DNA of 64,000 bases from a virus (Duplodnaviria; Heunggongvirae; Uroviricota; Caudoviricetes). The notes under the pieces are model-generated. The model had not been told where the DNA came from. It saw only the letters and a list, made by a program, of their open reading frames with translations, and made no database searches. Of this stretch, positions 1,341 through 23,402 are shown in pieces. A program made the position numbers and the translations under genes. Location of the stretch: positions 1 to 64,000 of IMG/VR virus record IMGVR_UViG_3300012346_000380, one strand, 5' to 3'. Positions within the stretch are counted from its first letter, which is position 1; each line of letters begins with the position of its first letter.

Positions 1341-1370
1341 AATAAAAAAGCCAATCTAATGATTGGCTTG
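1341..1370 (-). terminator. intrinsic terminator hairpin (AAGCCAATC-taat-GATTGGCTT) followed by a T-run on the minus strand
   Basis: A perfect 9-bp inverted repeat at about 1348-1369 with an A-run on the plus side (a T-run in minus sense). It lies just downstream of the tRNA cluster. Confidence 0.5.
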
Positions 1371-1994: not shown

Positions 1995-2076
1995 ATTTGT
2001 TTGTTTTTAATTATAAGGCTAATATACTGCTTTTATTTGACATAAAAAAATTATTTAGCATTTATTTTTAAAATAT
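1995..2076 (-). promoter_or_regulatory. conserved intergenic promoter/leader element copy P1 (GGCTAATATAC ... TTTGACATAAAAAAATTATTTAG ... TTATTTTT on the plus strand)
   Basis: It belongs to a family of at least 12 near-identical elements that sit immediately upstream (in minus sense) of gene starts. In gene orientation it reads ..TTTTTTTATGTCAAA..GTATATTAGCC..AATTAAAAACAAAC-ATG, which resembles a Bacteroidetes TAnnTTTG -7 box plus an A-rich leader. Confidence 0.5.
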
Positions 2077-2532
2077 TTACATATAAGAAGTAGAAAGACT
2101 CTTGAGATGATTTAAGAGTGCTTTATCTTCAATCCTATGAATTATTTTCATACCTTCTTGTTGTCTTTTAAGCGCAGTTATAGTATTGCCTGTGTGAAAT
2201 GTAATATTATGTAATTGTGCAACTTTAGGATCCATTTCGAAAATACATCCAGCAAATTGGTCTTCTTTTGTTTGCAAAGGCACTGAAATCCAATAAACTC
2301 TATGTGAATTCATAATCTTATTATATTGACCATTTGGTATTGAAAATGAATCATAATAAATTAGAGGTGCATTTGTTTTTACTTCAACATTATTTCCGTC
2401 AATGATCATGTCCTTTTCAGAATCAAAAATATTTAAGGATTCATCTACAACACATCCTGCATCTCTAAAATGTTTTGCTACAATCTTTTCGCCTAACATT
2501 CCTAATAGAACTTTTTTATAATCTACTTCCAT
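2077..2532 (-). CDS. hypothetical protein with a possible PD-(D/E)xK nuclease-like motif (IIDGNNVEVKT)
   Basis: ORF track. The D..EVK arrangement following a hydrophobic strand is suggestive only. Confidence 0.4.
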   Translation of the reverse strand: MEVDYKKVLLGMLGEKIVAKHFRDAGCVVDESLNIFDSEKDMIIDGNNVEVKTNAPLIYYDSFSIPNGQYNKIMNSHRVYWISVPLQTKEDQFAGCIFEMDPKVAQLHNITFHTGNTITALKRQQEGMKIIHRIEDKALLNHLKSLSTSYM

Positions 2533-2535
2533 TTT

Positions 2536-3948
2536 TTACATTGCATTTACAGCTGCAATAATCTGATCTATTTTGGTTAATAAAGATGCTTTAGAACTTC
2601 CAGCTTTTTCATTGATAAATCCTCTAGCTGTGTTAAGATCTTCTAAAGAAAATGTTTTATCACTACCATAAACTCTGGCTGCTAATGGATTTGTATTAAT
2701 CTTATTATTAACAAAAGTTAACATAAAATCTAAACATTTATCATAATTACCAGTGTTTGGATCAACTAATCTTGCGGCTGTACGAATATCATCATATAAA
2801 GCTTGTACATTGTTTGGTCTGTTAACTAAAGACTTCATAATCACAGCTTGTGTTAAGTATTGAAATCTTTTGCTTAAAAGAGCTTCAGCAATATATTTGG
2901 TTTCAAAGTTAGCAGTTCGGCCATAATTACCAATCCAACCTAAATACAACCACGTTGAGCGTACTTCATCTCTTTCTTCTAATTGTTGACTTACGCTACC
3001 GTTATCTAAACTTCTACGAGCAATATCACCCGCAAACCAAATTGGATCTAAAACCGACTCATAAGTATCGTCTGATAATTTACCATCTACATAGATATTA
3101 AATGGACCAAATTTACCACCTTTATATCTTATAACATGTTGAATATAAGCGCTTGACATCCATTTCATTGTGTTATAAGACTCTTTAAAGTCTGAGTAAC
3201 CATGCTCACCTGGGTGCTTTTGGCCTTCTGTCAAACTATTAAAGACTACTCTTTTAAATCTAACGTAATTTTCATCAGTTGGACTGTCAAGATAATTCAT
3301 ATATGCAGACTTGACTTGTAAATTACCATTTCTCAAAAGTTCCATTGGTTTATCTGGCATAATATCATTAATAGAAGCGGTATCAATCCAAGATGGCAAA
3401 GTAATTGGCACCTTAATTTGTGTAAAGTCCCAGTTATTAACTTGACTTACGCTATATGAAGCATTACTTAAGCCAACTGAGTTTGCAAATTGACCTTCAC
3501 TTACTATTTCACCTCCAGGTTGATACACGTTCTTGATTGAATTTCTAGGTGTAACTTTTCCTTTTGTTAAACTCTTAATGTAATTCATCACATTAATTGC
3601 ATCTTGTGTAGAAACGTGCTTTATTGCTCTGTGAAACGTACGATTCATAAAAGGAATTGAATCTATGTTGTTAAACAATGCAATGTCATAACCATCTTTA
3701 GAAACGTGACAGCTCATGCAAGAATGGCCGTCTTTGTCTAAAGTTGAAGTGTAGACTGTCTGTCCTTTAAGGATCGATTCGCTCATAGAACCAGAATTTA
3801 CAATTCTAGAATCCAACTGTGTTTCTGTGTTTAATTCTCCTGGGGCAACAGCAGTCACTGTAGTTTTTGGTGTAATTTCTTCAAGTTCATCTTTTGTACA
3901 AGATTGAAATAAAACTACAGCGACTAATAATAATGATAACTTTTTCAT
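2536..3948 (-). CDS. exported lipoprotein with a single CxxCH heme-c binding motif (putative c-type cytochrome domain protein)
   Basis: The start is taken at the internal ATG (MKKLSLLLVAVVLFQSC). The track ORF begins at a TTG and reads through the upstream promoter element. Signal peptide with a lipobox (FQSC). GHSCMSCHV supplies the only other cysteines in the protein. Confidence 0.6.
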   Translation of the reverse strand: MKKLSLLLVAVVLFQSCTKDELEEITPKTTVTAVAPGELNTETQLDSRIVNSGSMSESILKGQTVYTSTLDKDGHSCMSCHVSKDGYDIALFNNIDSIPFMNRTFHRAIKHVSTQDAINVMNYIKSLTKGKVTPRNSIKNVYQPGGEIVSEGQFANSVGLSNASYSVSQVNNWDFTQIKVPITLPSWIDTASINDIMPDKPMELLRNGNLQVKSAYMNYLDSPTDENYVRFKRVVFNSLTEGQKHPGEHGYSDFKESYNTMKWMSSAYIQHVIRYKGGKFGPFNIYVDGKLSDDTYESVLDPIWFAGDIARRSLDNGSVSQQLEERDEVRSTWLYLGWIGNYGRTANFETKYIAEALLSKRFQYLTQAVIMKSLVNRPNNVQALYDDIRTAARLVDPNTGNYDKCLDFMLTFVNNKINTNPLAARVYGSDKTFSLEDLNTARGFINEKAGSSKASLLTKIDQIIAAVNAM

Positions 3949-4014
3949 GTTCTTTGCTTTTTTGTTATATGTAAATATACCACAAATCTTTGACATAAAA
4001 AAATATTTAAGCAA
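3949..4014 (-). promoter_or_regulatory. conserved promoter/leader element copy P2 (TGTAAATATAC .. TTTGACATAAAAAAATATTTAAG)
   Basis: Same repeat family as P1. It lies directly upstream of the lipoprotein gene. Confidence 0.5.
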
Positions 4015-5091
4015 TTATTTTTCGTTTAAAAGAAATTTATTTGAAATAGCTTTAAAACTAATCTGTCTGTCCATGGTTCTAAACACTACACCTTCTCTAT
4101 CGAAGTTTGGGTTAAGCACTGACTTTGCTTCTGCAAAGGCTAAACAATCATCGATGGTTTCTGGCAATTTCATCGTTAGATTAGTTAAAATTGGCACAGT
4201 CTCTAACTTAAATTGATGTTTAAATAAAGCCAAGAACATAGGTAAACCATAATAATATTGATTGTCAATATCAAATGCGTTAAAGAATTTAACTGTATGT
4301 CCTTTGATTCCATAAGGATTGCCTTGAATTCCTTCACCGATCAATTCACCTTGTAAAGCCATGTTGTGATTATCATTCTCTCTCAATTTCTCTTCAATCT
4401 TCAATTCACGAGCTACTTTCCAAAATGTATTTTCTTCAGTTTCAAGTAAATCTAAATTTCTAGAGCAAACTCCAAATACGCCGTCATTTAAATAAAAAGT
4501 AGCTGAACTACCATCTAATTTCTCAGTCACGTAAAAGTCTAAATCTTCTTCAAACCATTTTTTATAAAAGCCTGTTAAATTTTGAACTCTCTCTTCATCA
4601 GTTTTTCTTAAGAATGATGGAAAGCTACCTTTAACTTTACCAGCTAATTCGGCTGGAATTGGTGGTTCATATTTAACTACGTTTAAATATTCTGTCACAT
4701 CTGCACCTTCTTCAATTACTAAAGCATTATCATAAGGTCCAACTTGTAATCTGTCTTCGCTCATTCCTATCTTATACTCATCGGGCCCTTCTAAAATACT
4801 CAAAGGCACTACAAGTCCTTGAGAAACTTGGCCTCTAAGTCTAATCGTTTTTAAACGAAAACCTTCTTGATCTGCCATTTTCTTAAAAGAGCTCTTGCGT
4901 AAAAACTCAAACTCTTCTCTAATCGGTAGAAATGAGTCAATTTCAAAATAAACGCAAAGATCTCCTGGCTTATATTCTCCTTTTTTAGAAACTACATCCC
5001 AGTTATTAATTCTTACAACTTCAATTGCATCAGCGCCTTCAATTGGTCTAATGCTTGCTACTCTTTGAATTGAGGCTAATTTTCTTTCCAT
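4015..5091 (-). CDS. ATP-dependent RNA ligase, Rnl5/DraRnl-like (N-terminal extra domain, nucleotidyltransferase KxDG motif at about residue 190)
   Basis: VTEKLDGSS is the lysine-adenylyltransferase motif I. It is preceded by an approximately 180-aa N-terminal domain (IEGADAIEVVRINNWD..GDLCVYFEIDSFLP), as in Rnl5/NgrRnl-type ligases. A DNA-ligase assignment is possible but less likely. Confidence 0.55.
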   Translation of the reverse strand: MERKLASIQRVASIRPIEGADAIEVVRINNWDVVSKKGEYKPGDLCVYFEIDSFLPIREEFEFLRKSSFKKMADQEGFRLKTIRLRGQVSQGLVVPLSILEGPDEYKIGMSEDRLQVGPYDNALVIEEGADVTEYLNVVKYEPPIPAELAGKVKGSFPSFLRKTDEERVQNLTGFYKKWFEEDLDFYVTEKLDGSSATFYLNDGVFGVCSRNLDLLETEENTFWKVARELKIEEKLRENDNHNMALQGELIGEGIQGNPYGIKGHTVKFFNAFDIDNQYYYGLPMFLALFKHQFKLETVPILTNLTMKLPETIDDCLAFAEAKSVLNPNFDREGVVFRTMDRQISFKAISNKFLLNEK

Positions 5092-5378
5092 GGTTTTTTA
5101 TATTTAAGTTCCCAAAATTTTCTATACTCTCGTACGTTAATCATTTTAATAGTGTAGTTCCAATAATCTGTTTCGTTTCTTATTGTTAAATGCAAAACTA
5201 ACATCGAAGGTGGAACATGGTTTGTTGTAGCCCATTTAAAAAGAGCTTTGGTATTTCCTTTTTGTCTAATTTTTTTAGCAAATGTTTTAAAATCACAATC
5301 CCATACTTCAGGATAATAATGTAAAACTCCAGAACTACCGTGTCCAATATAACCAATATTATATGCTACTTGATCCAT
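5076..5378 (-). CDS. hypothetical protein
   Basis: ORF track. It overlaps the downstream ligase gene by 16 nt. Confidence 0.4.
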   Translation of the reverse strand: MDQVAYNIGYIGHGSSGVLHYYPEVWDCDFKTFAKKIRQKGNTKALFKWATTNHVPPSMLVLHLTIRNETDYWNYTIKMINVREYRKFWELKYKKPWKEN

Positions 5379-5389
5379 TTTTTATAGTA

Positions 5390-6499
5390 TTATGAGTTTG
5401 AAAATGGTTTTTCAAACTCTGGTTTAATCATTTTCCAAATTGCATCTCTAATACTTTTATTGTTCTTAATAGAAAATAAAAGACCTGAATTTTTATAAAA
5501 TTTAGCTTCATTGGCAAACATTTTATCAAATTCAGTTTGATAAATTGCAACTCTATCAAAAATCTCATTGAATTTTCGATATGCATCTGCTTCTATTTTC
5601 GAGTAAGCCTCTCTCAAGGTTGTCTCTTGTGCTCTGACCCAATCATAGAACTCATCTGGCACGTCCTTTAGCAATTCTTCTGGTATCTTATTGAATTTCA
5701 TTAAGTTCTCCCAGATGTCATAAGAAGAGCATTGAGTTAGTATTCTGTGTAAAGCACAATAGTCTTCAAACTTAATTTTGACTCTCTTATTAGAAGGAAA
5801 GAATCTTAAAACGAAACCTTCTTTGTTTTGCTCATTCTTTTTCTTTAACGTCTTATATAGATCTTCATTTAAATTAAAGACTTGATTAGTTTCTACAATG
5901 TCATATTTTTCAATACCTGCACATTTAAAGAAAACACACGCCGTAGTCCAATTTAATTCATCAGTGTTTTCACCATCCCAATTCCATGAAGTATTGTAAG
6001 CTGCTCCTAAAAAGACTACCTTTTCAAAATCATACTTAACAACAATTCTATTTTCATTGTAAATGATCTCACACAAATAAGCAATAGCTGGTTCAAATGA
6101 TCTTAAATCATTATATCTAGCTTTGACCATTTCAAGACCTTTGATAGCTTGTACAGATGTAAAAGAGCCTCTAGTGGCCATGATCCATTCACCTTTATAA
6201 TTAAATAAGATACCTAATGAACCATCCATTTTCTCTTGCACATAGACATAATCAGAAGAAGTCCAAGGAATATCCTCAGCTACTTCTTCATAATTAAAAA
6301 ATTTAGGAAATGATTTAATAATAACCTCGCCAGTTGAATCATCGACGATTAAACCTCTACAAGCCAAAGTAATTTCATCCCATTTCTTTTCATATTGGGT
6401 AGCTTGTGAGTAATTGTATATGCTTAATGGTAAAGTTGGGTGACTTTGTTTAATCACCCAACCTTCTTCTACGTACTTGTCTAATATTTTCTTATTCAT
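5390..6499 (-). CDS. RNA ligase 1 family (T4 RnlA-like)
   Basis: At 369 aa with motif I VQEKMDGSLGILF near residue 100, it matches the T4 Rnl1 architecture (K99 in a KEDG-type motif). NYSQ..ITLACRGLIV lies upstream of that motif. Confidence 0.55.
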   Translation of the reverse strand: MNKKILDKYVEEGWVIKQSHPTLPLSIYNYSQATQYEKKWDEITLACRGLIVDDSTGEVIIKSFPKFFNYEEVAEDIPWTSSDYVYVQEKMDGSLGILFNYKGEWIMATRGSFTSVQAIKGLEMVKARYNDLRSFEPAIAYLCEIIYNENRIVVKYDFEKVVFLGAAYNTSWNWDGENTDELNWTTACVFFKCAGIEKYDIVETNQVFNLNEDLYKTLKKKNEQNKEGFVLRFFPSNKRVKIKFEDYCALHRILTQCSSYDIWENLMKFNKIPEELLKDVPDEFYDWVRAQETTLREAYSKIEADAYRKFNEIFDRVAIYQTEFDKMFANEAKFYKNSGLLFSIKNNKSIRDAIWKMIKPEFEKPFSNS

Positions 6500-6569
6500 C
6501 TTCTTTAATTATATGTAAATATACCAAAAATAAATGAGATAAAAAAATATCTAAGCACTTATTTTTAAA
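6500..6569 (-). promoter_or_regulatory. conserved promoter/leader element copy P3
   Basis: The sequence TTAATTATATGTAAATATACC..ATGAGATAAAAAAATATCTAAGCACTTATTTTTAAAT is a repeat-family member upstream of the Rnl1-like gene. Confidence 0.45.
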
Positions 6570-6956
6570 TTATAATTGTATTTCAAATCTGTCTTCCATT
6601 TGTTTTAGCTTTTCAGCTGGAACACCATGTTGATTAACTCCGTTATGTCTGTTTTCAACTATCAAAGAGTACACGATATAACCATATTTTTTAGCTAATG
6701 TGTAATATGTTTCCATTTCCCACTCTTGTGTAAATGTATTTGATATAACAATACGAGCTTCTCCGTTTTCCATATCTTCTTTACAAGATGATTGGCAATA
6801 TTTGTGTGCTTGTAAAAGTTTTACAGCTTCAAACTTATATTCACCTTTTCTATTTGTAAAGAAATGATCTGCTTCGTGATGTGTTCCACCTAAAGATTTA
6901 GCGACGGTTGATTTGCCAGAACCTGGTAAACCTCTTAATAAAAATAATTCTTTCAT
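6570..6956 (-). CDS. polynucleotide 5'-kinase-like P-loop kinase (T4 Pnk kinase-domain-like)
   Basis: Walker A RGLPGSGKSTVAK near the N-terminus. Small size (128 aa). It sits between an RNA ligase and a phosphoesterase. Confidence 0.55.
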   Translation of the reverse strand: MKELFLLRGLPGSGKSTVAKSLGGTHHEADHFFTNRKGEYKFEAVKLLQAHKYCQSSCKEDMENGEARIVISNTFTQEWEMETYYTLAKKYGYIVYSLIVENRHNGVNQHGVPAEKLKQMEDRFEIQL

Positions 6957-6966
6957 ATTTGATTGA

Positions 6967-7632
6967 TTAACAAGTCATTGCATCATTGTGATGATCATGC
7001 TCGTGTTTTAATAAAGATTGTATTGGTCTATCTACAATTAGTTTCAAAACTTGATCAATAGTGTAAGGTTGAAAATCAGGGCTTCCATCAATTCCAACAT
7101 CCATCATTCTACCAGGCCCAACTTTAAATTGATGTGGTGTGTGAATATGACCATGGACGTGCATTACGCCTTGACCCATATCTTGCCAAGAAGCCAAAGG
7201 ATAATGACTCATGACGAATCTGTATTTTTTGGCTGCTTCACCTTTGGTAGTTGGTTGTATTACAATTGTCACCATTCTTTGCTCATTTACTGAGGCAAAA
7301 AGATCTTGAACATTATCTTTATTGTTAAGAATATGATGATCATGGTTTCCTAAGAATAAATGAATGTTCTTACAGTTTAATTTATTTCTGAATTCTACAA
7401 TAGAATCAAAGCCTCCAAAAGACCAGTCACCTAAGTGAATTAAAATATCGTCTTTCATAACTAACATGTTAATGTTGTCTTGTAAGTCAATATTCATTTG
7501 ATTTAATGATTCATAATCTCTAGTGCCTCGGGCTCCATCCCATTTAGAAACTCCTCTACAAATATTTGTATGGTTGTAATGCGTATCTGAAGTAAAAAAG
7601 ACTCTTTGTCCTGGGTTAACTACTATCTTCAT
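6967..7632 (-). CDS. calcineurin-like metallophosphoesterase (candidate 2',3'-cyclic/3'-phosphoesterase of the RNA-repair cassette)
   Basis: All MPP motifs are present: SDTHYNH (DxH), HLGDWSFGG (GD), FLGNHDHH (GNHD/E), and a GHxH region (HVHGHIH). Confidence 0.75.
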   Translation of the reverse strand: MKIVVNPGQRVFFTSDTHYNHTNICRGVSKWDGARGTRDYESLNQMNIDLQDNINMLVMKDDILIHLGDWSFGGFDSIVEFRNKLNCKNIHLFLGNHDHHILNNKDNVQDLFASVNEQRMVTIVIQPTTKGEAAKKYRFVMSHYPLASWQDMGQGVMHVHGHIHTPHQFKVGPGRMMDVGIDGSPDFQPYTIDQVLKLIVDRPIQSLLKHEHDHHNDAMTC

Positions 7633-7720
7633 AGTTTATTTGTTTTTAATTATAAGGCTAATATACAACAAATAATTGACATAAAAAAATATTTAAGTCT
7701 TTATTTTTAAAATATTTTAG
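7633..7720 (-). promoter_or_regulatory. conserved promoter/leader element copy P4
   Basis: The sequence TTTTAATTATAAGGCTAATATACAAC..ATTGACATAAAAAAATATTTAAGTCTTTATTTTTAAAATATT lies directly upstream of the phosphoesterase gene. Confidence 0.5.
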
Positions 7721-7801
7721 CAGTCAAGGCAGGATTCGAACCTGCAACGATACAACCATTAAGGATGACATAACCATTTTGCCATTACGTATTACTTGAC
7801 T
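7721..7801 (-). ncRNA. tRNA-like RNA module 1: perfect T-arm and a 7-bp acceptor-like stem, but no convincing anticodon arm
   Basis: Minus-sense sequence AGTCAAGTAATACGTAATGGCAAAATGGTTATGTCATCCTTAATGGTTGTATCGTTGCAGGTTCGAATCCTGCCTTGACTG. Acceptor AGTCAAG/CTTGACT and T-arm GCAGG-TTCGAAT-CCTGC are clear. The best anticodon candidate (loop GTCATCC, anticodon CAT) has only a 4-bp stem. This may be an odd tRNA, a pseudo-tRNA, or a Y-RNA-type tRNA mimic. Confidence 0.35.
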
Positions 7802-7860
7802 TCCTTTCTAATGAGAGCATCACACACTCAAGACTGTTCATAAACTAGTTTAAGTAGAGT

Positions 7861-8015
7861 AGTCAGGACAGGATTCGAACCTGTATTGTAATTATACTCC
7901 TCTTTGTGTTAGCAGTCAGAGTTTCGCCTACAGTCATTGGGTGCTAACCTTTCGGACCCAACCGCGTCTACCATGAAAGGACCTTTAATATTCCTAACTA
8001 TTCCGCCACCTGACT
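7861..8015 (-). ncRNA. tRNA-like RNA module 2: the T-arm plus acceptor 3' strand are at 7861-7884, and the matching AGTCAGG 5' strand is about 150 nt upstream at 8009-8015
   Basis: The minus-sense 3' end is ACAGGTTCGAATCCTGTCCTGACT-ACTCTAC. The complementary AGTCAGG lies at 8009-8015. The intervening RNA contains GCGGTTGGGTCCGAAAGGTTAGCA, which resembles the Y-RNA 5' GGUCCGA motif. The fold is unresolved by eye. Confidence 0.3.
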
Positions 8016-8672
8016 TCAATTTACTAATCTGGGTCTTTCATGTAGCTTACCGAGTTATCAGTTACGGAGCTTGTACATGAGCAGGGTTTCTGATTGAGTG
8101 CAATAAGTGACGCCTTCCTACTGTAAACCCTTTTTCGGAAATTAATACACTCTACCTCTCAATTAACAGCAAGCATTAGTAAATTGTTTAGCACCCTCTT
8201 TCTTATATGACTATTTCTTACAGTTTACGCCCATATAAGAGTAGGGTCACGTAGTTTTCAATTTGGCAGTTCCTCTCTGCACCCATTTGTTAAGTTTAAT
8301 TATTGCTACTTGCTGAGAACTCATTTGTGTTGATAAGAACGTTGTCTTACTCTTTTATAGCATCACTTTCTCAAGGTGACAACACATCTACCATTACTGA
8401 TAGTATCTTTATGTAAATTATACTTAATATTTATAGACGATAAGTTAAACGTCGGCAATAATTTACAAAGGTATTCAATGTTTAACCTATTAACAATTAT
8501 CGACTACAAGGTTAATTGTTTTGTGTGAGCTTTTAGCACACTACCTGCCAGTTTATACATAGGAACCGAAACCTTAAACCTAGTCTGACCTGCCAGACAG
8601 TACAAGTCGATATTAATTTCACGTGTCGTTTTGTAGTAGGTTCTTTTGTTATATCTTAAACCTTTAAAAAGT

Positions 8673-9254
8673 TTAAAGTATTGTGTCTTTATATCCTTGT
8701 TTCCAATCTAACCACGGTTCATCGATTGCTTTTAATAATGACAGATATTTCCAATGCATAAACAATTTACGCTCGTTCCAATCTTCATATTTTTTAATTA
8801 AAAGATCTTGCTTATCCATTTCAGTTTTATAGAAATCTGCTCTTTTTGAAAGTTTAGTAAAGCGATCATCTAATTTTGCAAGTCTTTTTACAGCATTTTC
8901 AGTTGAGAGTCCTTGCATTGATAATGAAACTATCAATTCTTTTAGATTAACAATCATGTCAATCATAGAATTCAATTTCGGTACTAATGAATTGTAAGAA
9001 GTTTTTGCAGATTCCTTTGATCTTTTAAAACTATTATAATTCTCTTGCAATTCTTTGTCAGCTAGATCTTCATGAATTAATGTAGTAACATCAATGCCAT
9101 ACATTTGATCGAACTGTTCTCCGGCTGGAATCGGTGCTAACATAGCCATTCCTGCAATTTCTTCGTTTTTAGTTTCATTTAAAACTGCAACGTAACAATT
9201 ACCTTTTTGAGTTTCTAAAAGCTCTTTAACTTGTTTTTGTGTGTATAATTTCAT
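8673..9254 (-). CDS. hypothetical protein
   Basis: ORF track. No motif recognised. Confidence 0.5.
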   Translation of the reverse strand: MKLYTQKQVKELLETQKGNCYVAVLNETKNEEIAGMAMLAPIPAGEQFDQMYGIDVTTLIHEDLADKELQENYNSFKRSKESAKTSYNSLVPKLNSMIDMIVNLKELIVSLSMQGLSTENAVKRLAKLDDRFTKLSKRADFYKTEMDKQDLLIKKYEDWNERKLFMHWKYLSLLKAIDEPWLDWKQGYKDTIL

Positions 9255-10184: not shown

Positions 10185-10799
10185 TTAATAATGATTAAGA
10201 ATATCTAATGAGTCTGGATAATATAACAATGTTGGATTTTTCTTTTGAATATCAATGTCTGGATATTTTTCACTGAATGTTTTAACATCAAATCTTTCAG
10301 TAATTAAATGAAATCCATTTTTAGTTGGTATAGTTGTTATAACTTTGTTACCAACTGGTCTAAGATTATCAATGAAATCGCCAACTTCAACTAAAGTTTT
10401 AAAATCTTTAGTATCAATGTCTACAATCCATCTTTTCTCTTGAGTTTTTATTTGTCCAACAACAGAATCAAATAAACCTTTTTGATTATGATTTCCATCT
10501 TGGATCTTTTGAGCTAGAGCAACCATCATATTTAAACTAACATCAAAATGATTTTGCTTTTGCACATGAATATAAGCTCGAGCCTTAAACATCTCACAAA
10601 GTTGAATGATTTCGTCCCAACGTCTCTCTAAATGATCAACGCTTTCAATACAATATGTTTTAATAGTTCTTACTGATTGGTGATTATCTCTTTCGTTTTC
10701 TGGTTGATCTTTTTTACGTTTAAAAACATAAAGCATATAAAAGTCACCTCTCTTTTCGAAGTTCAAGAGTCCTTTGATTTGTTCTAAATTATTTAGCAT
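10185..10799 (-). CDS. hypothetical protein
   Basis: ORF track. Confidence 0.5.
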   Translation of the reverse strand: MLNNLEQIKGLLNFEKRGDFYMLYVFKRKKDQPENERDNHQSVRTIKTYCIESVDHLERRWDEIIQLCEMFKARAYIHVQKQNHFDVSLNMMVALAQKIQDGNHNQKGLFDSVVGQIKTQEKRWIVDIDTKDFKTLVEVGDFIDNLRPVGNKVITTIPTKNGFHLITERFDVKTFSEKYPDIDIQKKNPTLLYYPDSLDILNHY

Positions 10800-10801
10800 A
10801 C

Positions 10802-11017
10802 TTATAATTCTTTAACTGTTAAACGCTTTGCATCTACAACCGTACTTAATTTTTCAAATGCGATACTTGTTGAAGAGTCAGATGCTCTAAAACATAAATA
10901 ATGTTCTCCATCTAATACAATTCCATATTTACAAGATGCTAATTCTGTGATTGCAACATTTGCTTTTACTAAAATTGAATCTATCATTCCGCTAATTTGT
11001 TTTTCTAACTCAGTCAT
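10802..11017 (-). CDS. hypothetical small protein (start at the internal ATG MTELEKQ)
   Basis: The N-terminal 26 residues of the track ORF (..FFVYIYRVIKTIK) are a translation of the conserved promoter element and the terminator region. 'cat' at 11015-11017. Confidence 0.45.
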   Translation of the reverse strand: MTELEKQISGMIDSILVKANVAITELASCKYGIVLDGEHYLCFRASDSSTSIAFEKLSTVVDAKRLTVKEL

Positions 11018-11110
11018 ATTCTTTATTGTTTTAATTACTCTGTAAATATAAACAAAAAAGCCCAAATAAAAAAATATTTGAGCTTTTATTTTCATAAAGT
11101 TACGAACAAT
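11018..11110 (-). promoter_or_regulatory. terminator-promoter cassette copy P5 (hairpin AAGCCCAAAT/ATTTGAGCTT at about 11054-11085, then TGTAAATATA promoter-like box)
   Basis: Near-identical cassettes occur at 18011-18100 and 21492-21589. The hairpin plus T-run in minus sense lies downstream of gene 11111..11377. Confidence 0.5.
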
Positions 11111-11377
11111 TTATTTGTAGTCCTGTAAAAGTCCTCTAATATCTTGTATTTCTTTATAGGTAACTGTTTCGTCTTTTGCTATATTAAAATCTTGCCATTT
11201 GTATGAGATAATATTGTTTTGCACAATAGGCTTCATGTGATGTTGTCGCTTTTTGCAACATGAACATTCACGCATTGGAATTCTAATAGTTTCTCTATTC
11301 GCTGGATGGCCTGTGATTTTAACTTTTTCTTTACTGTATTTCCAAAAATGAAAATTTAAAACGCAAAAGAGTTTCAT
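11111..11377 (-). CDS. hypothetical Cys-rich small protein
   Basis: ORF track. Contains a CSCCKKRQHH motif. Confidence 0.45.
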   Translation of the reverse strand: MKLFCVLNFHFWKYSKEKVKITGHPANRETIRIPMRECSCCKKRQHHMKPIVQNNIISYKWQDFNIAKDETVTYKEIQDIRGLLQDYK

Positions 11378-11391
11378 GATGTTATATTGTT

Positions 11392-11556
11392 TTATTCGTT
11401 GTTTAGATCTTTTTGCCAGGATTTATCCTTTCTATTGTACTTAGCTAAATCTCCGTGATCCTTTGACATCATTTTACGACGAATTATAGCAGCAACGTGT
11501 CTGTCAGTTAATCCGTTTAAAGTTTCGTTAGGTTTTGCTTTCTTTTTATTAGCCAT
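11392..11556 (-). CDS. small basic protein, 54 aa (MANKKKAKPNETLNGLTDRHVAAIIRRKMMSKDHGDLAKYNRKDKSWQKDLNNE)
   Basis: Not in the track (under 60 aa). It is the only ORF filling the 240-nt gap. Its lysine/arginine-rich composition suggests nucleic-acid binding. Confidence 0.3.
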   Translation of the reverse strand: MANKKKAKPNETLNGLTDRHVAAIIRRKMMSKDHGDLAKYNRKDKSWQKDLNNE

Positions 11557-11617
11557 GATTATATGTATTCTTATTTATTACACAAATATACGAATAATAA
11601 TTGAAAGTAAAAAATAT

Positions 11618-12379
11618 TTATGCGTATTTTTTAATGATATATTTTATTAATTCATTTGCGTATAATTGATGTGCTTCAAACGAAGGATGATCGTCATTTA
11701 TATTTGTAATATCACACAATCTTTGTTTAGTTTCAGTTGCAAAATCAAAAAGACTTTTGTAGCCAAACGGCATAAATTGATTTTTGCATAATTTATTACC
11801 TAATGTTATTTTATCTATGTTTTCACATGTAAAAATAAAATTAAAGTCGTGTAACGTAAGATAACTTATAAATCCTATTAATTGTCTTTTTATATCCTGT
11901 TCATAATACACTGGATTATAAAAACCATCGATCCAACTCTGTTTTTTTAATTCAAGTTTATTTAAATCATTTATAGAATGTAAATTTGGACACAACCATT
12001 CATCTATTAAAAATCCGTCTACTAATTTGTTATTTTCATATACAACATACATATTAAAATTATTTTGTAAATCATTAGACCATTCGTTGATTCTAAAAGG
12101 AGATTCATTAAATTGAAATATAAATAAAGTATCGTCTGTTTTATGTGAATCGATATAAGAATAAAAATCTTTAATGATTTTAATAACTCCTGTGCCCGAC
12201 ATAGAAACGTCTATGCTTGTTAAATTAAAATAATTTGAAACTGATTTTGTATAGGACGCATCTCTAGAATTTTTATAATTAATTCCTTGGTTAGCATACC
12301 ATTTTGCTGCTTCTTCGAGGCCTCCACCCGTAGTATACGAACATCCTGCAAAATAAATTTGTTTAAATGGAATTTTCAT
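11618..12379 (-). CDS. hypothetical protein (possible SGNH/GDSL-like hydrolase; weak)
   Basis: ORF track. The N-terminal FAGCSYTTGGG block loosely resembles the Ser-containing block I of SGNH hydrolases. Confidence 0.4.
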   Translation of the reverse strand: MKIPFKQIYFAGCSYTTGGGLEEAAKWYANQGINYKNSRDASYTKSVSNYFNLTSIDVSMSGTGVIKIIKDFYSYIDSHKTDDTLFIFQFNESPFRINEWSNDLQNNFNMYVVYENNKLVDGFLIDEWLCPNLHSINDLNKLELKKQSWIDGFYNPVYYEQDIKRQLIGFISYLTLHDFNFIFTCENIDKITLGNKLCKNQFMPFGYKSLFDFATETKQRLCDITNINDDHPSFEAHQLYANELIKYIIKKYA

Positions 12380-12393
12380 GAATTATATATTAA

Positions 12394-12422
12394 TAAAAAA
12401 ATCCAGGCTTACGGGCCTGGAT
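12394..12422 (-). terminator. intrinsic terminator hairpin (ATCCAGGC-ttacgg-GCCTGGAT) followed by T7 in minus sense
   Basis: A perfect 8-bp GC-rich stem at about 12401-12422 with AAAAAAA at 12394-12400 on the plus strand. It closes the ORF-free segment downstream of the Ro60-like gene. Confidence 0.55.
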
Positions 12423-12429
12423 TAAATTA

Positions 12430-12757
12430 TAGCGGGATCGTTGTTCGTGATTTTCTTCTCGGCAGAATAACCCTCTTTTACGTCTTCGGCAATTGCTTTC
12501 GCGAGCGTCTACTTTACTTCGACCCATCCTACTTACTTCCTAATGGGGTGGTTTGACGTGTAGCTTATTTTTAGTGTTAGCCTTCACTTTGACCGGAAGC
12601 TTCATTTCGTCCATAAGACAATCCACCTTTTACCCAGTCCTCTGTCATAGTTGTTTGTGTACTTTTTGCTGTACCGATCCACCTGGTTCCAATCGTTTGC
12701 TAGTTAAGTGATTGCTTTTTATAGTTTGCTGTAAGGAACCAATTTTCTTTATATATC
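12430..12757 (-). ncRNA. candidate structured ncRNA (possible Y-RNA-like partner of the adjacent Ro60/TROVE protein)
   Basis: About 330 nt with no ORF in any frame. GC is visibly elevated relative to the flanks. It is transcribed co-directionally immediately 3' of the Ro60-like gene and ends at a strong terminator. It contains internal complementary segments (e.g. TGGTTCC ... GGAACCA). Confidence 0.35.
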
Positions 12758-14185
12758 TTAAACAATTGGAGCGTATCTCTCGCTCAAGATTGTTTTGTCC
12801 ATGATTTGCTGTGGAGATTCAATATCTCCTCCAAGTAAACTTGTCATAATTGCTGGTGAGAAACCTGAAACTAATGCAGTTCCTGCTTTGTCAAAAGCAA
12901 CTGGCACTCCACCGTTTCTAGATTGAATATTCCAGTAAACAATTTGAGGCATTTTGTAACCTGAAGACTCATACATGTCGTTAATTACTTGTTGAGCTGT
13001 TGGATTCCATGATGCTTCATTTCTCCATGAGCTAGATCTAACAGCCTGATTAAATTCCATATCTGACAAGATTAGAATTTTGTTTGGCATCTCATCTTGA
13101 GACAATTTATGTTTAGTGGCCTGATCTAAGATCAGCTTGAAGGTCGCCTCGAGATTTGTTGACATTCCCCAATCGGAACATGACATCTGTGCGTAGCGAT
13201 CTTGCAATGAACCACTTAGTACTTGTAACTGTGGAGAGTTTGAAAATGTTATAAATGCATCTTTGAAAGGACCTTCATTTCTTTCAGAAATATAAAGACC
13301 TAAAGAGATTGCAACATCCATACATGTTACAGTTTTACTACCACCTGCTGAGCAAGACATAGAACCTGAAACATCCACCACTGGTAAAATCATATCGTTT
13401 GCTCCTTCTAAATAATTAGGAAGGGCTTTCCATTGTTCGTTTGCTACTTTTGCATTTCCATGAGTTAATGACTTAGTCACGTCATAAGGATAAACTGCAC
13501 CTGCATTAATTTTAGCTTCACCTTTCACTAAAGATTGGATATATGCTGAATAACTTTCGTATGCATTTTTACCGAAAGCTTTTTGGTAACGTGCTGATGC
13601 TACTGATGGTAATTTACCGAATTCGATAGAATCCCATTCTTTAGCACACATTTTAGTTTCAACTACATTAGTCAAATTAACTAAAGTTTTACGGTATTGT
13701 TTTGGAGATAAATCCATGAATTTACGTAACTTTTCAGCATTTTGACCTTTACGTGGCATCCATTTAGCGCATAAACCATTTTCTGCTTTAATAGCATTTT
13801 CGATTATAATCAACGCATCGTTTTCTAAATAAGTTCCAAAAAGAGATAATAAGTCATCGAAACGACCATACTCTGCAATCAAACCTAAATTTGGTTTTAA
13901 GGCTAAATCATGATTTTCAGCTAAGTAAACTAAAATGTCTTTAAAGACTTGACGTTCACCTGCACCACCTCTAACATCTCTTGCCCAAAACAAAAGTTTC
14001 ATAGCACGCTTAGGATCTTCATTGAAAGCTTTTGAAAAAGTTGCGATCAAACGTTGTTTGTCTTGGCCTCTCATTGCTCCAATATTAAAGAATAAGTCAA
14101 CACATGCATTCAATGAAGTTGAATTTGTTGCCATTCCATTTTCTGTTACGATGTCTTCTTGTCTTAAAGCGTCTACTAAGTTCAT
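12758..14185 (-). CDS. Ro60/TROVE-like protein with C-terminal vWA domain (Rsr ortholog candidate)
   Basis: 475 aa. The N-terminal helical region is followed by a vWA MIDAS motif VVDVSGSMS and downstream LILSDMEFN. This is the architecture of the Ro60 (TROVE + vWA) family, whose bacterial and phage members partner with Y RNAs. Confidence 0.5.
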   Translation of the reverse strand: MNLVDALRQEDIVTENGMATNSTSLNACVDLFFNIGAMRGQDKQRLIATFSKAFNEDPKRAMKLLFWARDVRGGAGERQVFKDILVYLAENHDLALKPNLGLIAEYGRFDDLLSLFGTYLENDALIIIENAIKAENGLCAKWMPRKGQNAEKLRKFMDLSPKQYRKTLVNLTNVVETKMCAKEWDSIEFGKLPSVASARYQKAFGKNAYESYSAYIQSLVKGEAKINAGAVYPYDVTKSLTHGNAKVANEQWKALPNYLEGANDMILPVVDVSGSMSCSAGGSKTVTCMDVAISLGLYISERNEGPFKDAFITFSNSPQLQVLSGSLQDRYAQMSCSDWGMSTNLEATFKLILDQATKHKLSQDEMPNKILILSDMEFNQAVRSSSWRNEASWNPTAQQVINDMYESSGYKMPQIVYWNIQSRNGGVPVAFDKAGTALVSGFSPAIMTSLLGGDIESPQQIMDKTILSERYAPIV

Positions 14186-14232
14186 TGTTTTTTGTTTTAG
14201 ATGTTAGTTATATTAGAATAAATCTTAATGTT

Positions 14233-14448
14233 TCATTTTATTTTGTATTTCTTTTTATAAGAATTGACAGTGGATTCAGAGTAACCTACACAAATCTCAT
14301 CAAGTTCCCATTCATTAGGGATTACTGGTTTCCTTTTGGTCGTTGACAGAATGTCGTCTACATTCATATTCTCCAGAATCATGATTTGGTGTTTCTTGCT
14401 TCTGCTCGATACTCGATAAACTATTATTATTCTTGGTTTCTCTGTCAT
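14233..14448 (-). CDS. hypothetical small protein
   Basis: ORF track. Confidence 0.4.
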   Translation of the reverse strand: MTEKPRIIIVYRVSSRSKKHQIMILENMNVDDILSTTKRKPVIPNEWELDEICVGYSESTVNSYKKKYKIK

Positions 14449-14493
14449 GTCTATAATCTACTGGGTCATCCCAATAACAAAATATGTAACTCA

Positions 14494-15093: not shown

Positions 15094-15178
15094 ATTTTGT
15101 TTGTGTTTTAATTATAAGTCAAATATACAACTAATATTTGACATAAAAAAATATTTTATGATAAAAAAGCAAAAAACT
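15094..15178 (-). promoter_or_regulatory. conserved promoter/leader element copy P6
   Basis: TTTTAATTATAAGTCAAATATACAAC..TTTGACATAAAAAAATATTTTATG lies upstream of the sigma-factor gene. Confidence 0.5.
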
Positions 15179-16804: not shown

Positions 16805-16867
16805 TTTTGATTGTGTTTAAATGTATTAACTTGAATAATTATATGAGTAAATGTTAAAAGGTTTATT

Positions 16868-17662: not shown

Positions 17663-17791
17663 ATTTATGGTTTAAAGTCCCTATAACCTTATCTCTCGCT
17701 GAAAGACGAAACTTATATTAGTATTGGGCCCGTTTGTTTCAATTTTTTAAAAATACTATTTAGTCCACTGTGATTTTAAAGCTCACTGGCA

Positions 17792-18010: not shown

Positions 18011-18100
18011 CTTGTTTGTTTTAATTACTTTGTAAATATACAAAAAAAAGCCCAAACTAAAAAATTTGGGCTTAACTATTTTCAAAAAATTATAGGCTTA
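18011..18100 (-). promoter_or_regulatory. terminator-promoter cassette copy P7 (hairpin AAGCCCAAA/TTTGGGCTT at about 18042-18073 plus TGTAAATATAC box)
   Basis: A perfect 9-bp stem with an 8-nt A-run on the plus side (T-run in minus sense). It is identical in design to the 21492-21589 copy. Confidence 0.55.
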
Positions 18101-18784
18101 TTATTCCCATATCTTATAAAACTTTCTAAATAACAAGACTACGTCCATTGCATCTTCAATTGCATTGTGTGTTACGACACTACTAAGTCCTGCTCTTTCT
18201 TTACACAGACTTAAACCTGGCGCAGCATCATCATTCTTCCAATCAATATAAAGAACTGAAGGATCTAAAGTTCTACCACGAGCTCTTAGGCATTGTTTCC
18301 ATCTCGGTAAGCGTTCTAGAAACTTATTATCAAAGTTGGCAAAGTTTTTACCAGCGGCATTGAAATAATAAGGTTTCATTTTGGAAGTTAAAGCTGGGTA
18401 TGATTTACCATTTACAAATTCCATCATACCAGTTGGATCAAACTTGCCATCTAAGGCTCCATTTTCCCATAAGAAATGAAAAATTCTTCGAGTAACATCT
18501 TCTTCTTTTAAATACTCACGACCTGTTCTAACTTCAATCGCTTTACGTTCTTCATCACTGCGAGCCATCTTATATTCTAAGATGTCAGCAATTAATTGAT
18601 GATTCATATTAATAGCAAAGATTTCACCTTCGATGCGTTCTCTAAGAATTGCTATCTCTAATGTTGGTAATTCTTCAACAGGTTTACAGTTAACTGTATC
18701 TTCAACTACTATACCAATTGATAGTGTTTGAGTGTTTTCATTATCGATTCCAGTGGTTTCGATATCAATTGACGTATATATCAT
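18101..18784 (-). CDS. DEDDh 3'-5' exonuclease (DnaQ/RNase T/oligoribonuclease superfamily)
   Basis: Exo I motif SIDIETTG and Exo III motif THNAIEDAMDVV. Confidence 0.6.
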   Translation of the reverse strand: MIYTSIDIETTGIDNENTQTLSIGIVVEDTVNCKPVEELPTLEIAILRERIEGEIFAINMNHQLIADILEYKMARSDEERKAIEVRTGREYLKEEDVTRRIFHFLWENGALDGKFDPTGMMEFVNGKSYPALTSKMKPYYFNAAGKNFANFDNKFLERLPRWKQCLRARGRTLDPSVLYIDWKNDDAAPGLSLCKERAGLSSVVTHNAIEDAMDVVLLFRKFYKIWE

Positions 18785-19190: not shown

Positions 19191-19452
19191 CTTTATTAAT
19201 TTTAAGTGAATCTACTACTTTTTGTAATCTATCAGCATCATCTGGATTTAAGATGATCTCGTCAAATGCACCAAAACGACTTTGATAACCAAAAATATAT
19301 CTAAAGGCATATTTAAGTCTTCGTAATATCGGTTGTTTTGTTAAATGTATCGTTAAATACAATTCATTATCATCTTCAAATTTTCTAAAGATAAATTGGT
19401 GATCTGGCGAATGGCAATCGCAGATAAAAATCTCTTGTGTTTCGAATTTCAT
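19183..19452 (-). CDS. hypothetical protein
   Basis: ORF track. Confidence 0.45.
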   Translation of the reverse strand: MKFETQEIFICDCHSPDHQFIFRKFEDDNELYLTIHLTKQPILRRLKYAFRYIFGYQSRFGAFDEIILNPDDADRLQKVVDSLKINKDE

Positions 19453-19862
19453 TATACTGTGTGTTCTATTCTTACTCTAACGCAGTTTTGCGGCAATCTG
19501 TGCAAGTGTCTGTAGTTATTTATATAACCCATCATGTTTGCAGAACCAACTGCATTTGCTGAGTGAATTACAACATCAACTACAGGTTGTCCATCTAACC
19601 ATTGATTGACTAACCATTTTGTGCAGTCCATGCCAGTTTTTTCAACAATATTATCATAGTTAATAGCGTAATTCTTAGTTACGCCATATTGCCATTCCTT
19701 CATTGCTGTTTCGCCTAAATCATGGTCTAGAGAAATTAGTTCAATATTCTCTAGACCAATGTACATAATTTGAGCTACGAACTGATCATAGTTCCTAACA
19801 ACAACCCAATCTTTATCAACTGGCGTTCTTACGTCATCTAAATAAATTCTTACTTTGCTCAT
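19452..19862 (-). CDS. hypothetical protein; possible receiver-like (CPR-type) domain
   Basis: IYLDDVRTP .. VVVRN .. LISLDHDLGE resembles the acidic strand-end pattern of receiver-like domains that are associated with RNA-repair loci. Weak. Confidence 0.35.
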   Translation of the reverse strand: MSKVRIYLDDVRTPVDKDWVVVRNYDQFVAQIMYIGLENIELISLDHDLGETAMKEWQYGVTKNYAINYDNIVEKTGMDCTKWLVNQWLDGQPVVDVVIHSANAVGSANMMGYINNYRHLHRLPQNCVRVRIEHTV

Positions 19863-20211: not shown

Positions 20212-20949
20212 CTACTTTTCGAACGTTGGTTTCAACCACATTCCATCTTGAAATAAAACTTCTTCGATCATTCCAGGATGTATGTCTTCTAATACGAATA
20301 ACATTTGCAAAGAAGTCATTGTATCTGCATGAAAACATTTAGTAAGTTCTTCTCTAATTCTTTGAGCACTTACAACCTCTTTCATTTTTACCCAAAGCAA
20401 TGGTTCTGCAATTGCTCTTTGAATATCTTCACACATTACAAAACCTTTAGTGATTGAAAATCTAAAAGCTCTTAGAATTCTCAAAGGATCATCCATAAAG
20501 GTTAACTTAGGATCTAAAGGTGTTACAAGTATCATTTGTTTTAAATGTTCTTGACCGTCAAACAAATCGATAATAGTTCCATCTTCAGCTTCTGCTAATG
20601 CGTTAACTGTAAAATCTCTACGCACTAAGTCATCTTCAAGAGTTCCAAGTTCTAAGATTGGTCTACGAGTTCCTTCTTCGTACCCAACTTCTTTACGAGC
20701 TAAAACAAAGTCAGCCACCATACCTTCATTCTCATGACCTTGTGGAAACTTAGCACGAATTGTAAAACAATCTGGCGTACTTAAAAAGATTGTAAACATG
20801 TGATGATCTAACCAATCTGTCATGATTTGAAATCCTTCTTCTACGGTTCTGTCTAGATTATCTAAGACAAATGTAAAATCAATATCGTTGGACTCTAGTC
20901 CAAGTAATCTATCTCTTACGCAACCTCCTACTTTAAATATTTTTGGCAT
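20212..20949 (-). CDS. class II tRNA nucleotidyltransferase head-domain protein (CCA-adding enzyme / poly(A) polymerase family, minimal form)
   Basis: N-terminal VGGCVRDRLLGLESNDIDF is the hallmark GGxVRD..DxD motif of Pol-beta-type CCA/A-adding enzymes. Confidence 0.7.
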   Translation of the reverse strand: MPKIFKVGGCVRDRLLGLESNDIDFTFVLDNLDRTVEEGFQIMTDWLDHHMFTIFLSTPDCFTIRAKFPQGHENEGMVADFVLARKEVGYEEGTRRPILELGTLEDDLVRRDFTVNALAEAEDGTIIDLFDGQEHLKQMILVTPLDPKLTFMDDPLRILRAFRFSITKGFVMCEDIQRAIAEPLLWVKMKEVVSAQRIREELTKCFHADTMTSLQMLFVLEDIHPGMIEEVLFQDGMWLKPTFEK

Positions 20950-22748: not shown

Positions 22749-23402
22749 TTAATTTGATAGAGATTTTTTCTTTCTAGCTATATTAAGATTTTCATAATTA
22801 GTTTGCTTATTAAATTGTCTTTCAATTCGATATAGATGATTTGGTGTTAGGCCAAACCATGGGTCCGAATGGTGAAACTTTGCAAATTGTTCAGGTAACA
22901 TATCAGAATCATCGTCTAAAATTACATAATCTTCAACGTCTGGATGAGCATCCAACCAATCTTGAATCTCTTCACCTCGTAAGGTTCTACGACGACCTGT
23001 AATTCCAACATACGTTCCGGGTTTAAACCCTAACTTTACTAAAGCATCCTCCCATCTTTCAGGAGTCGATATACAATCTTCCTTACCAAAATGATGCTTC
23101 CAAACTGAAGATACACAAATCTTTGTACCTGTTTCATTACACCAGTTACTTAGCCACTCCCATTTTTGAGGACATGTTTCCTCTACTAATCTTTCAAATT
23201 GATAATCAAATTCATAAAATCTCTTTGGCGTTTTATAATCTGCCATAGAAACTCCTTTTGATTTGATTCCAAATATTTTTCTAAGTAAACGTTTTGATTC
23301 ATATAACCAAGTAATTGGTTTTCTCCATCTTCTTTTATGTCTTTGTTCATAAAAAACTCTGGAATTCATAACGCCATCAATATCTAGGAATATTACTTTC
23401 AT
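22749..23402 (-). CDS. HAD-superfamily phosphatase (possible polynucleotide 3'-phosphatase type)
   Basis: N-terminal KVIFLDIDGVMN is HAD motif I (DxDG). The downstream acidic VILDDDSD resembles motif IV. Confidence 0.5.
   Translation of the reverse strand: MKVIFLDIDGVMNSRVFYEQRHKRRWRKPITWLYESKRLLRKIFGIKSKGVSMADYKTPKRFYEFDYQFERLVEETCPQKWEWLSNWCNETGTKICVSSVWKHHFGKEDCISTPERWEDALVKLGFKPGTYVGITGRRRTLRGEEIQDWLDAHPDVEDYVILDDDSDMLPEQFAKFHHSDPWFGLTPNHLYRIERQFNKQTNYENLNIARKKKSLSN

Follow-up and report, generated by a model that had tools for sequence, protein, structure and literature searches.

The DNA window analysed here comprises positions 1 to 64,000 of the IMG/VR virus record IMGVR_UViG_3300012346_000380 (Caudoviricetes), 64,000 nucleotides (nt) in all. 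Its minus strand carries, from 7632 to 4015, five back-to-back open reading frames (ORFs). They code, in this order, for a metallophosphoesterase (MPE), a small stand-alone P-loop kinase, a ligase of the T4 Rnl1 family, a conserved protein of 100 amino acids (aa), designated ORF100, and a ligase of the Rnl5 family (Table 1). These genes form the core of a candidate RNA end-healing and sealing toolkit. The original prediction, made from the sequence alone, had named four of them; all four ORFs lie where it had placed them, but the cassette has five genes, and ORF100 had been missed.

The cassette is closely packed. The MPE stop and the kinase start are 10 nt apart, 11 nt separate the Rnl1-like gene from ORF100, and the start of the Rnl5 gene shares a 16-nt overlap with the end of ORF100; the gap between the kinase and the Rnl1-like gene measures 70 nt. 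A promoter-like motif, TTTTTTATNTCA-N2-T-N7-GTATATT, was found eight times in the window, compared with 0.06 copies expected by chance, and all copies are intergenic and on the gene strand. Their positions suggest two co-regulated units, MPE-kinase and Rnl1-ORF100-Rnl5. A copy directly past the Rnl5 gene also suggests that the next gene, which codes for a 492-aa protein, really starts at an internal ATG near 3948, past the motif, and not at the TTG at 4014. A scan for sigma-70 promoters and terminators performed no better than on shuffled sequence, and a single clear terminator is located at 1369..1348, past the tRNA cluster.

Table 1. Genes and sequence features of the window discussed in the text. 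Positions are those of the whole 64,000-nt stretch.
Feature	Position	Strand	Remarks
MPE	7632..6967	minus	221 aa; candidate 3'-end healing enzyme (2',3'-cyclic phosphodiesterase and/or 3'-phosphatase)
Stand-alone P-loop kinase	6956..6570	minus	128 aa; candidate polynucleotide 5'-OH kinase
Rnl1-family ATP-dependent RNA ligase	6499..5390	minus	369 aa
ORF100, conserved 100-aa protein	5378..5076	minus	candidate partner of Rnl5-type ligase
Rnl5-family (DraRnl/NgrRnl-type) RNA ligase, putatively nick-sealing	5091..4015	minus	358 aa
Promoter-like motif	7660..7688	minus	upstream of MPE-kinase pair
Promoter-like motif	6518..6546	minus	in kinase/Rnl1-like gap; upstream of Rnl1-like, ORF100 and Rnl5 genes
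Promoter-like motif	3974..4002	minus	directly past Rnl5 gene
Promoter-like motif, other copies	2021-2049, 11585-11613, 15122-15150, 24014-24042, 24261-24289	minus
DEDDh-type 3'-5' exonuclease	18101..18784	minus	227 aa; weak RNase_T and NCBIfam 3'-5' exonuclease matches; DIET...H-x4-D motifs
cREC (cyclic-phosphate processing receiver) domain protein	19452..19862	minus	PF20274, 2.8e-21
Short CCA-adding-type tRNA nucleotidyltransferase	20212..20949	minus	245 aa; PolyA_pol head domain, 2.8e-17; TIGR02692, 3.6e-30; phrog_24229, 7.5e-62
HAD 'Swiss-army-knife' RNA-repair-family phosphatase	22749..23402	minus	PF18143 HAD_SAK_2, 8.9e-19; only HAD protein found in window
204-aa protein, function unknown	10185..10799	minus	phrog_14949
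193-aa protein	8673-9254	minus	no family
DUF2828 + DUF7788 protein	12758-14185	minus	phrog_850 'RNA-binding protein', 7e-158
Second phrog_547 member	15179-15718	minus	3.7e-19
Sigma-70-family factor	14494-15093
Fpg/Nei glycosylase	16868-17662	minus	NEIL1-type DNA-binding domain
SPFH/Band-7 lipoprotein	21590-22453	minus
DNA/RNA non-specific endonuclease	24295-24900	minus
2OG-Fe(II) oxygenase	26188-26913	minus

The last protein of the cassette is a full member of the Rnl5 family because it combines both family domains, passes the equivalog cut-off and matches NgrRnl along its whole length. Pfam PF21189 (PHA02142 OB domain) was matched at residues 5-97 (2e-41) and PF09414 (RNA_ligase) at residues 186-348 (4e-25), giving an N-terminal OB domain, a C-terminal nucleotidyltransferase domain and no C-terminal add-on within the 358 aa. 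NCBIfam TIGR02306, the DRB0094/DraRnl equivalog, scored 195.9 bits against a cut-off of 151, and the sequence of the NgrRnl structure (PDB 5cot) aligned at 3e-71. The ATP and metal ligands of NgrRnl are R4, D53, K121, T145, R149, K170, D172, R190, E227, F248, E312 and K326 (PMC7261155), and all twelve are kept, as R3, D52, K140, T164, R168, K191, D193, R211, E249, F270, E333 and K347. Characterised Rnl5 enzymes join 3'-OH/5'-PO4 nicks in duplexes that have RNA as the 3'-OH strand (PMC4408790); the physiological role of the family is called uncharted in a passage of another study (PMC5397189). We found homologues in 356 phage records, among them the Pakpunavirus group, where the kinase is present too.

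ORF100 had no match in Pfam, PHROG or the PDB and no homologue among cultured phages. In a library of 1.8 billion proteins it has 51 cluster representatives, and their alignment shows conserved NIGY, PPS and MINVREYR..WE motifs. The gene abuts or overlaps one for a ligase of the Rnl5 architecture (OB + PF09414) in 16 of 17 viral loci, standing either just upstream of a close Rnl5 gene or just downstream of a gene for a divergent OB + PF09414 ligase; L029 and L037 have divergent Rnl5/ORF100 pairs. This linkage is the one new lead of the locus, ORF100 being its sole element for which we found no description.

The Rnl1-like protein matched Pfam PF09511 (RNA_lig_T4_1; 3.5e-18, 66.7 bits against a gathering score of 28.3), phrog_562, the PHROG of T4 gp63 (7.5e-58 across residues 10-365), and the T4 Rnl1 structure 2c5u (3e-6). 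In a computed alignment its residues R48, K66, F68, K90, D92, G93, E144, E227, G228, K241, K243 and Y247 correspond to R54, K75, F77, K99, D101, G102, E159, E227, G228, K240, K242 and Y246 of T4 Rnl1, which we take to be the essential ones from the mutational literature on T4. The nucleotidyltransferase domain has motifs I, III, IV and V as well as the equivalents of the upstream residues R54, K75 and F77. Both family assignments made in the original prediction, an Rnl5/DraRnl-like ligase and one of T4 Rnl1 layout, were upheld; the lysine nucleophiles, which it had put at about residues 190 and 100, are K191 (motif I of Rnl5) and K90 (Rnl1-like). The pairwise alignment with T4 Rnl1 fades past about residue 283, though the phrog_562 profile reaches residue 365, and related ligases of cultured phages have only about 300 aa, compared with 369 here. 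In T4 Rnl1, the C-terminal helical domain confers tRNA specificity. Among related viral contigs, which we numbered with the prefix L, three (L006, L007, L008) have the Rnl1-like gene broken into ORFs of 144 and 201 aa by inserts of 0.9-1 kb. The insert of L007 codes for a GIY-YIG-like protein and that of L008 for another endonuclease-like protein; such inserts are probably mobile introns or genes for homing endonucleases.

The kinase was recognised by AAA_33 (4.9e-10), phrog_2071 (2e-36) and phrog_505 'polynucleotide kinase' (2.6e-7), and these sequence models say no more than 'AAA_33 / ATPase / polynucleotide kinase'. We compared an AlphaFold2 model built from 30 homologues (pLDDT 84) with the PDB using Foldseek. 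The top matches were 1ly1, 4gp6, 2ia5 and 1yj5 (TM-scores 0.68-0.77), and the nearest folds were those of the T4 Pnk kinase domain (E 2e-6), Clostridium thermocellum Pnk (TM 0.77), mammalian PNKP, a Mucorales Trl1-type kinase and Pnkp1, in agreement with the predicted likeness to the T4 Pnk kinase domain. Adenylate-, shikimate- and gluconate-kinase folds scored clearly lower (adenylate-kinase-like TM 0.49 versus 0.71-0.77). In the P-loop, G9-LPGSGKS-T17, residues G9, P11, G12, G14 and K15 are invariant and the rest are at least 90% conserved. The family-invariant D30 aligns with the general base D35 of T4 Pnk in a profile alignment whose E-value is only 0.012. The protein has no second domain and lacks the T4-type fusion to a DxDxT (HAD) 3'-phosphatase. 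Homologues were found in 622 phage records, often adjoining an RNA ligase gene, and are annotated 'ATPase', 'polynucleotide kinase' or 'NEDD4-binding protein'.

The original prediction had named DNA ligases and a deoxynucleoside monophosphate (dNMP) or adenylate kinase as the outcomes that would speak against it, and sequence and fold gave neither. The Rnl5 and Rnl1-like proteins do not resemble any DNA ligase family. An adenylate/dNMP kinase was also rejected as a candidate: the NCBIfam adenylate kinase match is confined to the P-loop, with 18 bits against a cut-off of 152, and such folds rank below the polynucleotide kinases.

The MPE matched phrog_547 (2e-40), and its score for Pfam Metallophos, 20.6 bits, lies just under the gathering score of 21.5. 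The dinuclear-site residues D16, H18, D69, N96, H143, H160, H162 and H164 are invariant in 33 homologues, and H97 is nearly so. With the motifs DxH, GD, GNH(D/E), H and GHxH intact, the protein has the metal site of a dinuclear MPE, and its recognition as a calcineurin-like phosphoesterase was correct. Enzymes of this superfamily can heal RNA ends by 2',3'-cyclic phosphodiesterase activity, as do CthPnkp and lambda phosphatase (PMC2190708), and the gene neighbourhood suggests such a 3'-end healing role for the MPE of the window. In the second phrog_547 member, metal ligands are replaced (D69 to N, N96-H97 to E-T, H143 to Y) and the GHxH motif is missing; this paralogue is likely to be catalytically dead, and in L037, L038 and L044 it is conserved beside the phage sigma-factor gene.

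The genes of the cassette are also linked elsewhere. In diverged viral contigs with 50-60% identity, the MPE-kinase pair recurs, mostly together with the Rnl1-like gene (L001, L007, L008, L031-L033, L035, L036 and L039), and all three are linked in L001, L007, L008, L033, L035 and L036. Linkage among MPE, kinase and Rnl1-like genes was also observed in the cultured phages Pseudomonas syringae phage Pyxpy02, Vibrio phage 5P1c, Pakpunavirus phipa10 and Vequintavirus MaxTheCat, where some copies are already annotated 'RNA ligase', 'polynucleotide kinase' or 'phosphoesterase'. This conserved linkage backs the proposed healing-and-sealing pathway, in which the functions are divided among separate proteins. 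As a correction to the original prediction, the set is not exceptional: many cultured phages have this trio annotated, and section 3.4.9 of Iyer et al. (2021; PMC7824862) describes similar RNA repair kits in jumbo phages, a few of them with calcineurin-like phosphatases in place of HAD. Each part of the kit is common in phages, including the MPE clade, the stand-alone kinase and the added Rnl5. In L001, the MPE and Rnl1 are 97-99% identical to those of the window and the kinase only 55%, and a 1.2-kb segment (2846-4054) with two extra ORFs is inserted.

The most complete arrangement was found in L033 (206 kb), L035 and L036. There, the genes for Rnl1, MPE, kinase, ORF100, Rnl5, DEDDh exonuclease and HAD_SAK are contiguous, cREC and the 204-aa protein follow within about 1 kb, and the full block spans about 7 kb; the 16-nt overlap between ORF100 and Rnl5 is kept in all three. 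In L024, Rnl1, HAD_SAK and Rnl5 lie in this order inside about 5 kb, with a homologue of the 204-aa protein about 1.3 kb further upstream. Homologues of the exonuclease directly follow Rnl5 in the three fused-block contigs and stand about 1.6 kb upstream of the Rnl1-like gene in L040. cREC homologues lie near Rnl1 or Rnl5 in the same three contigs and in L002, L004, L005 and L014-L023, and homologues of the 204-aa protein lie inside the repair blocks of L024 and L031-L036. The synteny of L033, L035 and L036 therefore argues that the dispersed genes of the window (10185-23402) belong to one functional set. The CCA-adding enzyme, DEDDh exonuclease and HAD phosphatase that had been pointed out elsewhere in the window are real, their membership is supported by synteny, and cREC, a domain predicted in the RNA repair section of PMC7824862 to resolve 2',3'-cyclic ends, joins them.

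The 193-aa and 204-aa proteins occur recurrently in or beside the repair blocks of L024, L029-L036 and L039, and they may be further components of the kit. The DUF2828 protein of the window may be the ROT/TROVE-like RNA-binding component that, according to Iyer et al. (2021), acts together with a tRNA-like RNA.

From 8672 to 7633, the gene strand has no ORF of 50 aa or more, and two non-canonical tRNA-like elements lie at about 8016..7858 and 7806..7721. In both, the T arm (GGTTCGAATCC) is perfect and the acceptor stem has 7 bp (AGTCAGG/CCTGACT and AGTCAAG/CTTGACT), and one contains an insert of about 110 nt. ARAGORN called neither of them, and Rfam gave only a sub-threshold tRNA match. At least 120 IMG/VR stretches contain the same acceptor and T-arm frame with variable middles, in 158 copies and with up to six per 5 kb. 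Compensatory changes between copies are seen in the acceptor and T stems, and ARAGORN calls only 34 of the 158 copies as tRNA, with inconsistent or odd anticodons. We also considered these RNAs as Y-RNA (YrlA)-like partners of the DUF2828 protein, which was not supported: the Rfam match was to tRNA and sub-threshold, and the DUF2828 protein had no Ro60 sequence match in the PDB.

Taken together, the cassette and the dispersed genes likely constitute an RNA end-healing and sealing toolkit. A cut by a metal-independent ribonuclease would leave a 2',3'-cyclic phosphate and a 5'-OH. The MPE would open the cyclic phosphate and remove the resulting 3' phosphate, perhaps with the help of cREC and HAD_SAK, encoded 12-16 kb away, and the 128-aa kinase would add a phosphate to the 5'-OH. 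The Rnl1-family ligase could then close breaks in single-stranded loops, such as tRNA anticodon loops. Rnl5, probably with ORF100, would close 3'-OH/5'-PO4 nicks in RNA helices, including the direct products of metal-dependent nucleases, while the DEDDh exonuclease and the CCA-adding enzyme would trim and rebuild 3' ends. The two ligases probably serve different lesions, because characterised Rnl5 enzymes seal duplex nicks and are not known for anticodon-loop breaks. Iyer, Anantharaman, Krishnan, Burroughs & Aravind (2021; PMC7824862), in their treatment of RNA repair, likewise see the several ligases of a jumbo phage as non-redundant and suited to different lesions.

The likeliest purpose would be to keep translation working during infection while tRNA or rRNA is being cut by host or rival elements. 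Many recently described defence systems act by cutting tRNA, among them PARIS, OLD, the Schlafen-like Cash proteins, PrrC and RloC. With tRNA as the substrate and defence against anticodon nucleases as the purpose, the proposal is plausible and matches the literature; for counter-defence taken by itself, we lean only slightly in favour. The window has its own genes for tRNA-Thr(UGU), Arg(UCU), Leu(UAA) and Ser(UGA), and a stem nick made in tRNA-Thr(UGU) by a mutant of P2-OLD, a Toprim nuclease, can be resealed by RNA ligases (PMC12445682).

Several observations weigh against the toolkit interpretation. The MPE is nearest to the Aquifex protein aq_1665, of unknown function, and does not belong to the clade of lambda phosphatase and CthPnkp; CthPnkp is no nearer to it than Mre11 or LpxH are. 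Sequence matches of the kinase to solved polynucleotide kinases are weak (E 0.002-0.02), and the position of R38, the arginine of T4 Pnk that contacts the acceptor phosphate, is occupied by F33. One of the invariant residues R8, R103 or R123 might stand in for it, and we treat the kinase as a candidate polynucleotide-kinase-like protein with this one defining residue unmatched. The kit is spread over about 19 kb among unrelated genes, and the co-function of its distant members rests on synteny in other contigs. PHROGs files phrog_562, named 'RNA ligase and tail fiber protein attachment catalyst', in its 'tail' category. To our knowledge, none of the proteins in these clades has had its activity measured, and we know of no host anticodon nuclease or other trigger.

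The enzymes could instead serve mainly to process the phage's own RNAs, that is, to mature, splice, circularise or recycle the phage tRNAs or the tRNA-like RNAs at about 7721-8016, which we consider unlikely. The ORF-less 1-kb stretch holding the tRNA-like elements, one of them with its 110-nt insert, stands directly upstream of the MPE gene. Three tRNA genes follow 2.4 kb downstream on the same strand, with no clear terminator before position 1348, and in fungi and plants, tRNA is spliced by healing-and-sealing enzymes belonging to these families, as stated in part of PMC10946426. However, homologues of the window's repair genes occur at only 8 of the 120 viral loci with the same tRNA-like frame, on which ground we also rejected a functional tie between the elements and the cassette as a general rule. 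Moreover, the cassette is present in phages without tRNA-like elements, no splicing endonuclease was found, and ARAGORN reported no intron-bearing tRNA.

Repair of breaks in DNA or RNA-DNA hybrids appears quite improbable. The set would then act on 3'-phosphates left by the phage Fpg/Nei glycosylase, or on RNA-primed nicks through Rnl5. Rnl5 enzymes tolerate DNA as the 5'-PO4 strand of a nick (PMC4408790) but require ribonucleotides at the 3'-OH end, and loss of DraRnl makes Deinococcus radiation-sensitive, according to a passage of PMC5397189. The fold of the kinase is also like that of PNKP, a DNA-repair enzyme of mammals, the nucleases Mre11 and SbcD are among the fold-space relatives of the MPE, and an Fpg/Nei-NEIL1-like glycosylase is encoded in the window. 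That glycosylase lies outside the contiguous block of L033, L035 and L036, however, and the tightest and widest linkage is to Rnl1-family ligases, cREC, HAD_SAK and the CCA-adding enzyme, all of them RNA-end enzymes.

T4 gp63 also helps to attach tail fibres, which is why PHROGs files its family under 'tail', but it is very improbable that the Rnl1-like protein is mainly a virion assembly factor of this kind with unrelated neighbours, as it retains all ligase catalytic residues, its gene is linked in many phages to kinase and phosphoesterase genes and not to tail genes, and the structural genes of the window are more than 25 kb away.

One of the closest known systems is that of T4, whose Pnkp and Rnl1 repair tRNA and reverse the damage done by the anticodon nuclease PrrC. 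The likeness extends to an Rnl1-family ligase with the same catalytic residues and of similar size (369 aa here, 374 aa in T4), a P-loop 5'-kinase of the same fold class, the heal-then-seal logic and a lytic myovirus with tRNA genes. In T4, the kinase is fused to a HAD (DxDxT) 3'-phosphatase and has Arg38, whereas the window has a 128-aa kinase without that arginine, an adjacent MPE and a HAD protein of another family (HAD_SAK) 16 kb away. A second ligase (Rnl5), cREC, the CCA-adding enzyme and the exonuclease are extra.

Pnkp of the C. thermocellum Pnkp/Hen1 repair system covers the same three chemistries with members of the same superfamilies (P-loop kinase, dinuclear MPE and ATP-dependent ligase) and has the kinase, metallophosphoesterase and ligase-like domains in one polypeptide. 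PHROG 8238 likewise has a homologous kinase and an Rnl1-like ligase fused in one 737-aa phage protein. DraRnl of Deinococcus radiodurans and NgrRnl of Naegleria gruberi share with the window's Rnl5 the OB + nucleotidyltransferase layout and the twelve identical ATP/metal-contacting residues. The window's Rnl5 differs in being phage-encoded and, as the gene overlap suggests, translationally coupled to ORF100; the cellular enzymes are not known to need such a protein. The same combination is found in the kits of Iyer et al. (2021; PMC7824862), whose RNA repair section lists ATP-dependent RNA ligases, a polynucleotide kinase, HAD_SAK, cRec and a CCA-adding enzyme, along with many tRNAs and, occasionally, a calcineurin-like phosphatase. 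The main phage ligases in that section are Rnl1, Rnl2 and RtcB, and it does not mention Rnl5 or the 100-aa family. The gene set adds a rather complete example to this documented kind of phage RNA repair toolkit and is modest as a discovery.

Beyond the cassette, the window is AT-rich (about 32% GC), and almost all of its genes lie on the minus strand. Among its genes are those for the tail sheath, the large terminase, the major capsid protein, the portal, the prohead protease and SbcC; the tail sheath and other structural genes therefore mark the phage as a myovirus. The nearest relatives of the large terminase are in uncultured huge phages, Tenacibaculum phage PTm1, Sphingomonas phage PAU and Lak phages (31-41% identity). 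Megablast of positions 2000-9000 against 50,697 phage records gave no match, so the phage was taken as uncultured; the source of the cassette is an uncultured jumbo myovirus. The 492-aa protein encoded past Rnl5 (2536-4014, minus strand) has no family in Pfam or PHROG and carries a lipoprotein-type signal (…LLLVAVVLFQSC) and a CxxCH haem-binding-like motif (SCMSCH). Similar lipobox signals were found in the products of the genes at 19875-20180 and 21590-22453, and these signals hint at a Bacteroidota host. The remaining accessory genes, in the early/middle region, are listed in Table 1; the window also encodes its own sigma-70-family factor.

The ORF100 family may supply phage Rnl5-type ligases with a dedicated subunit that activates them or targets them to substrates, with a division of labour in which Rnl1 would take loop breaks that need healing and Rnl5 with ORF100 would take helix nicks such as the products of Toprim-type tRNA nucleases. 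We put this forward tentatively and regard it as doubtful; the model for the subunit is archease, an activator-type partner of RtcB. If it were true, it would provide the first defined physiological role and a cofactor for the Rnl5 family.

The small stand-alone kinase and the aq_1665-type MPE are found in hundreds of phage genomes, and we know of no enzymological study of either. The window and its fused-block relatives offer a compact candidate gene set for reconstituting a complete phage RNA repair pathway, with the previously unannotated ORF100 flagged as a likely partner of Rnl5. The defences that a phage can escape would be easier to predict if the lesions reversible by each of its ligases were known.

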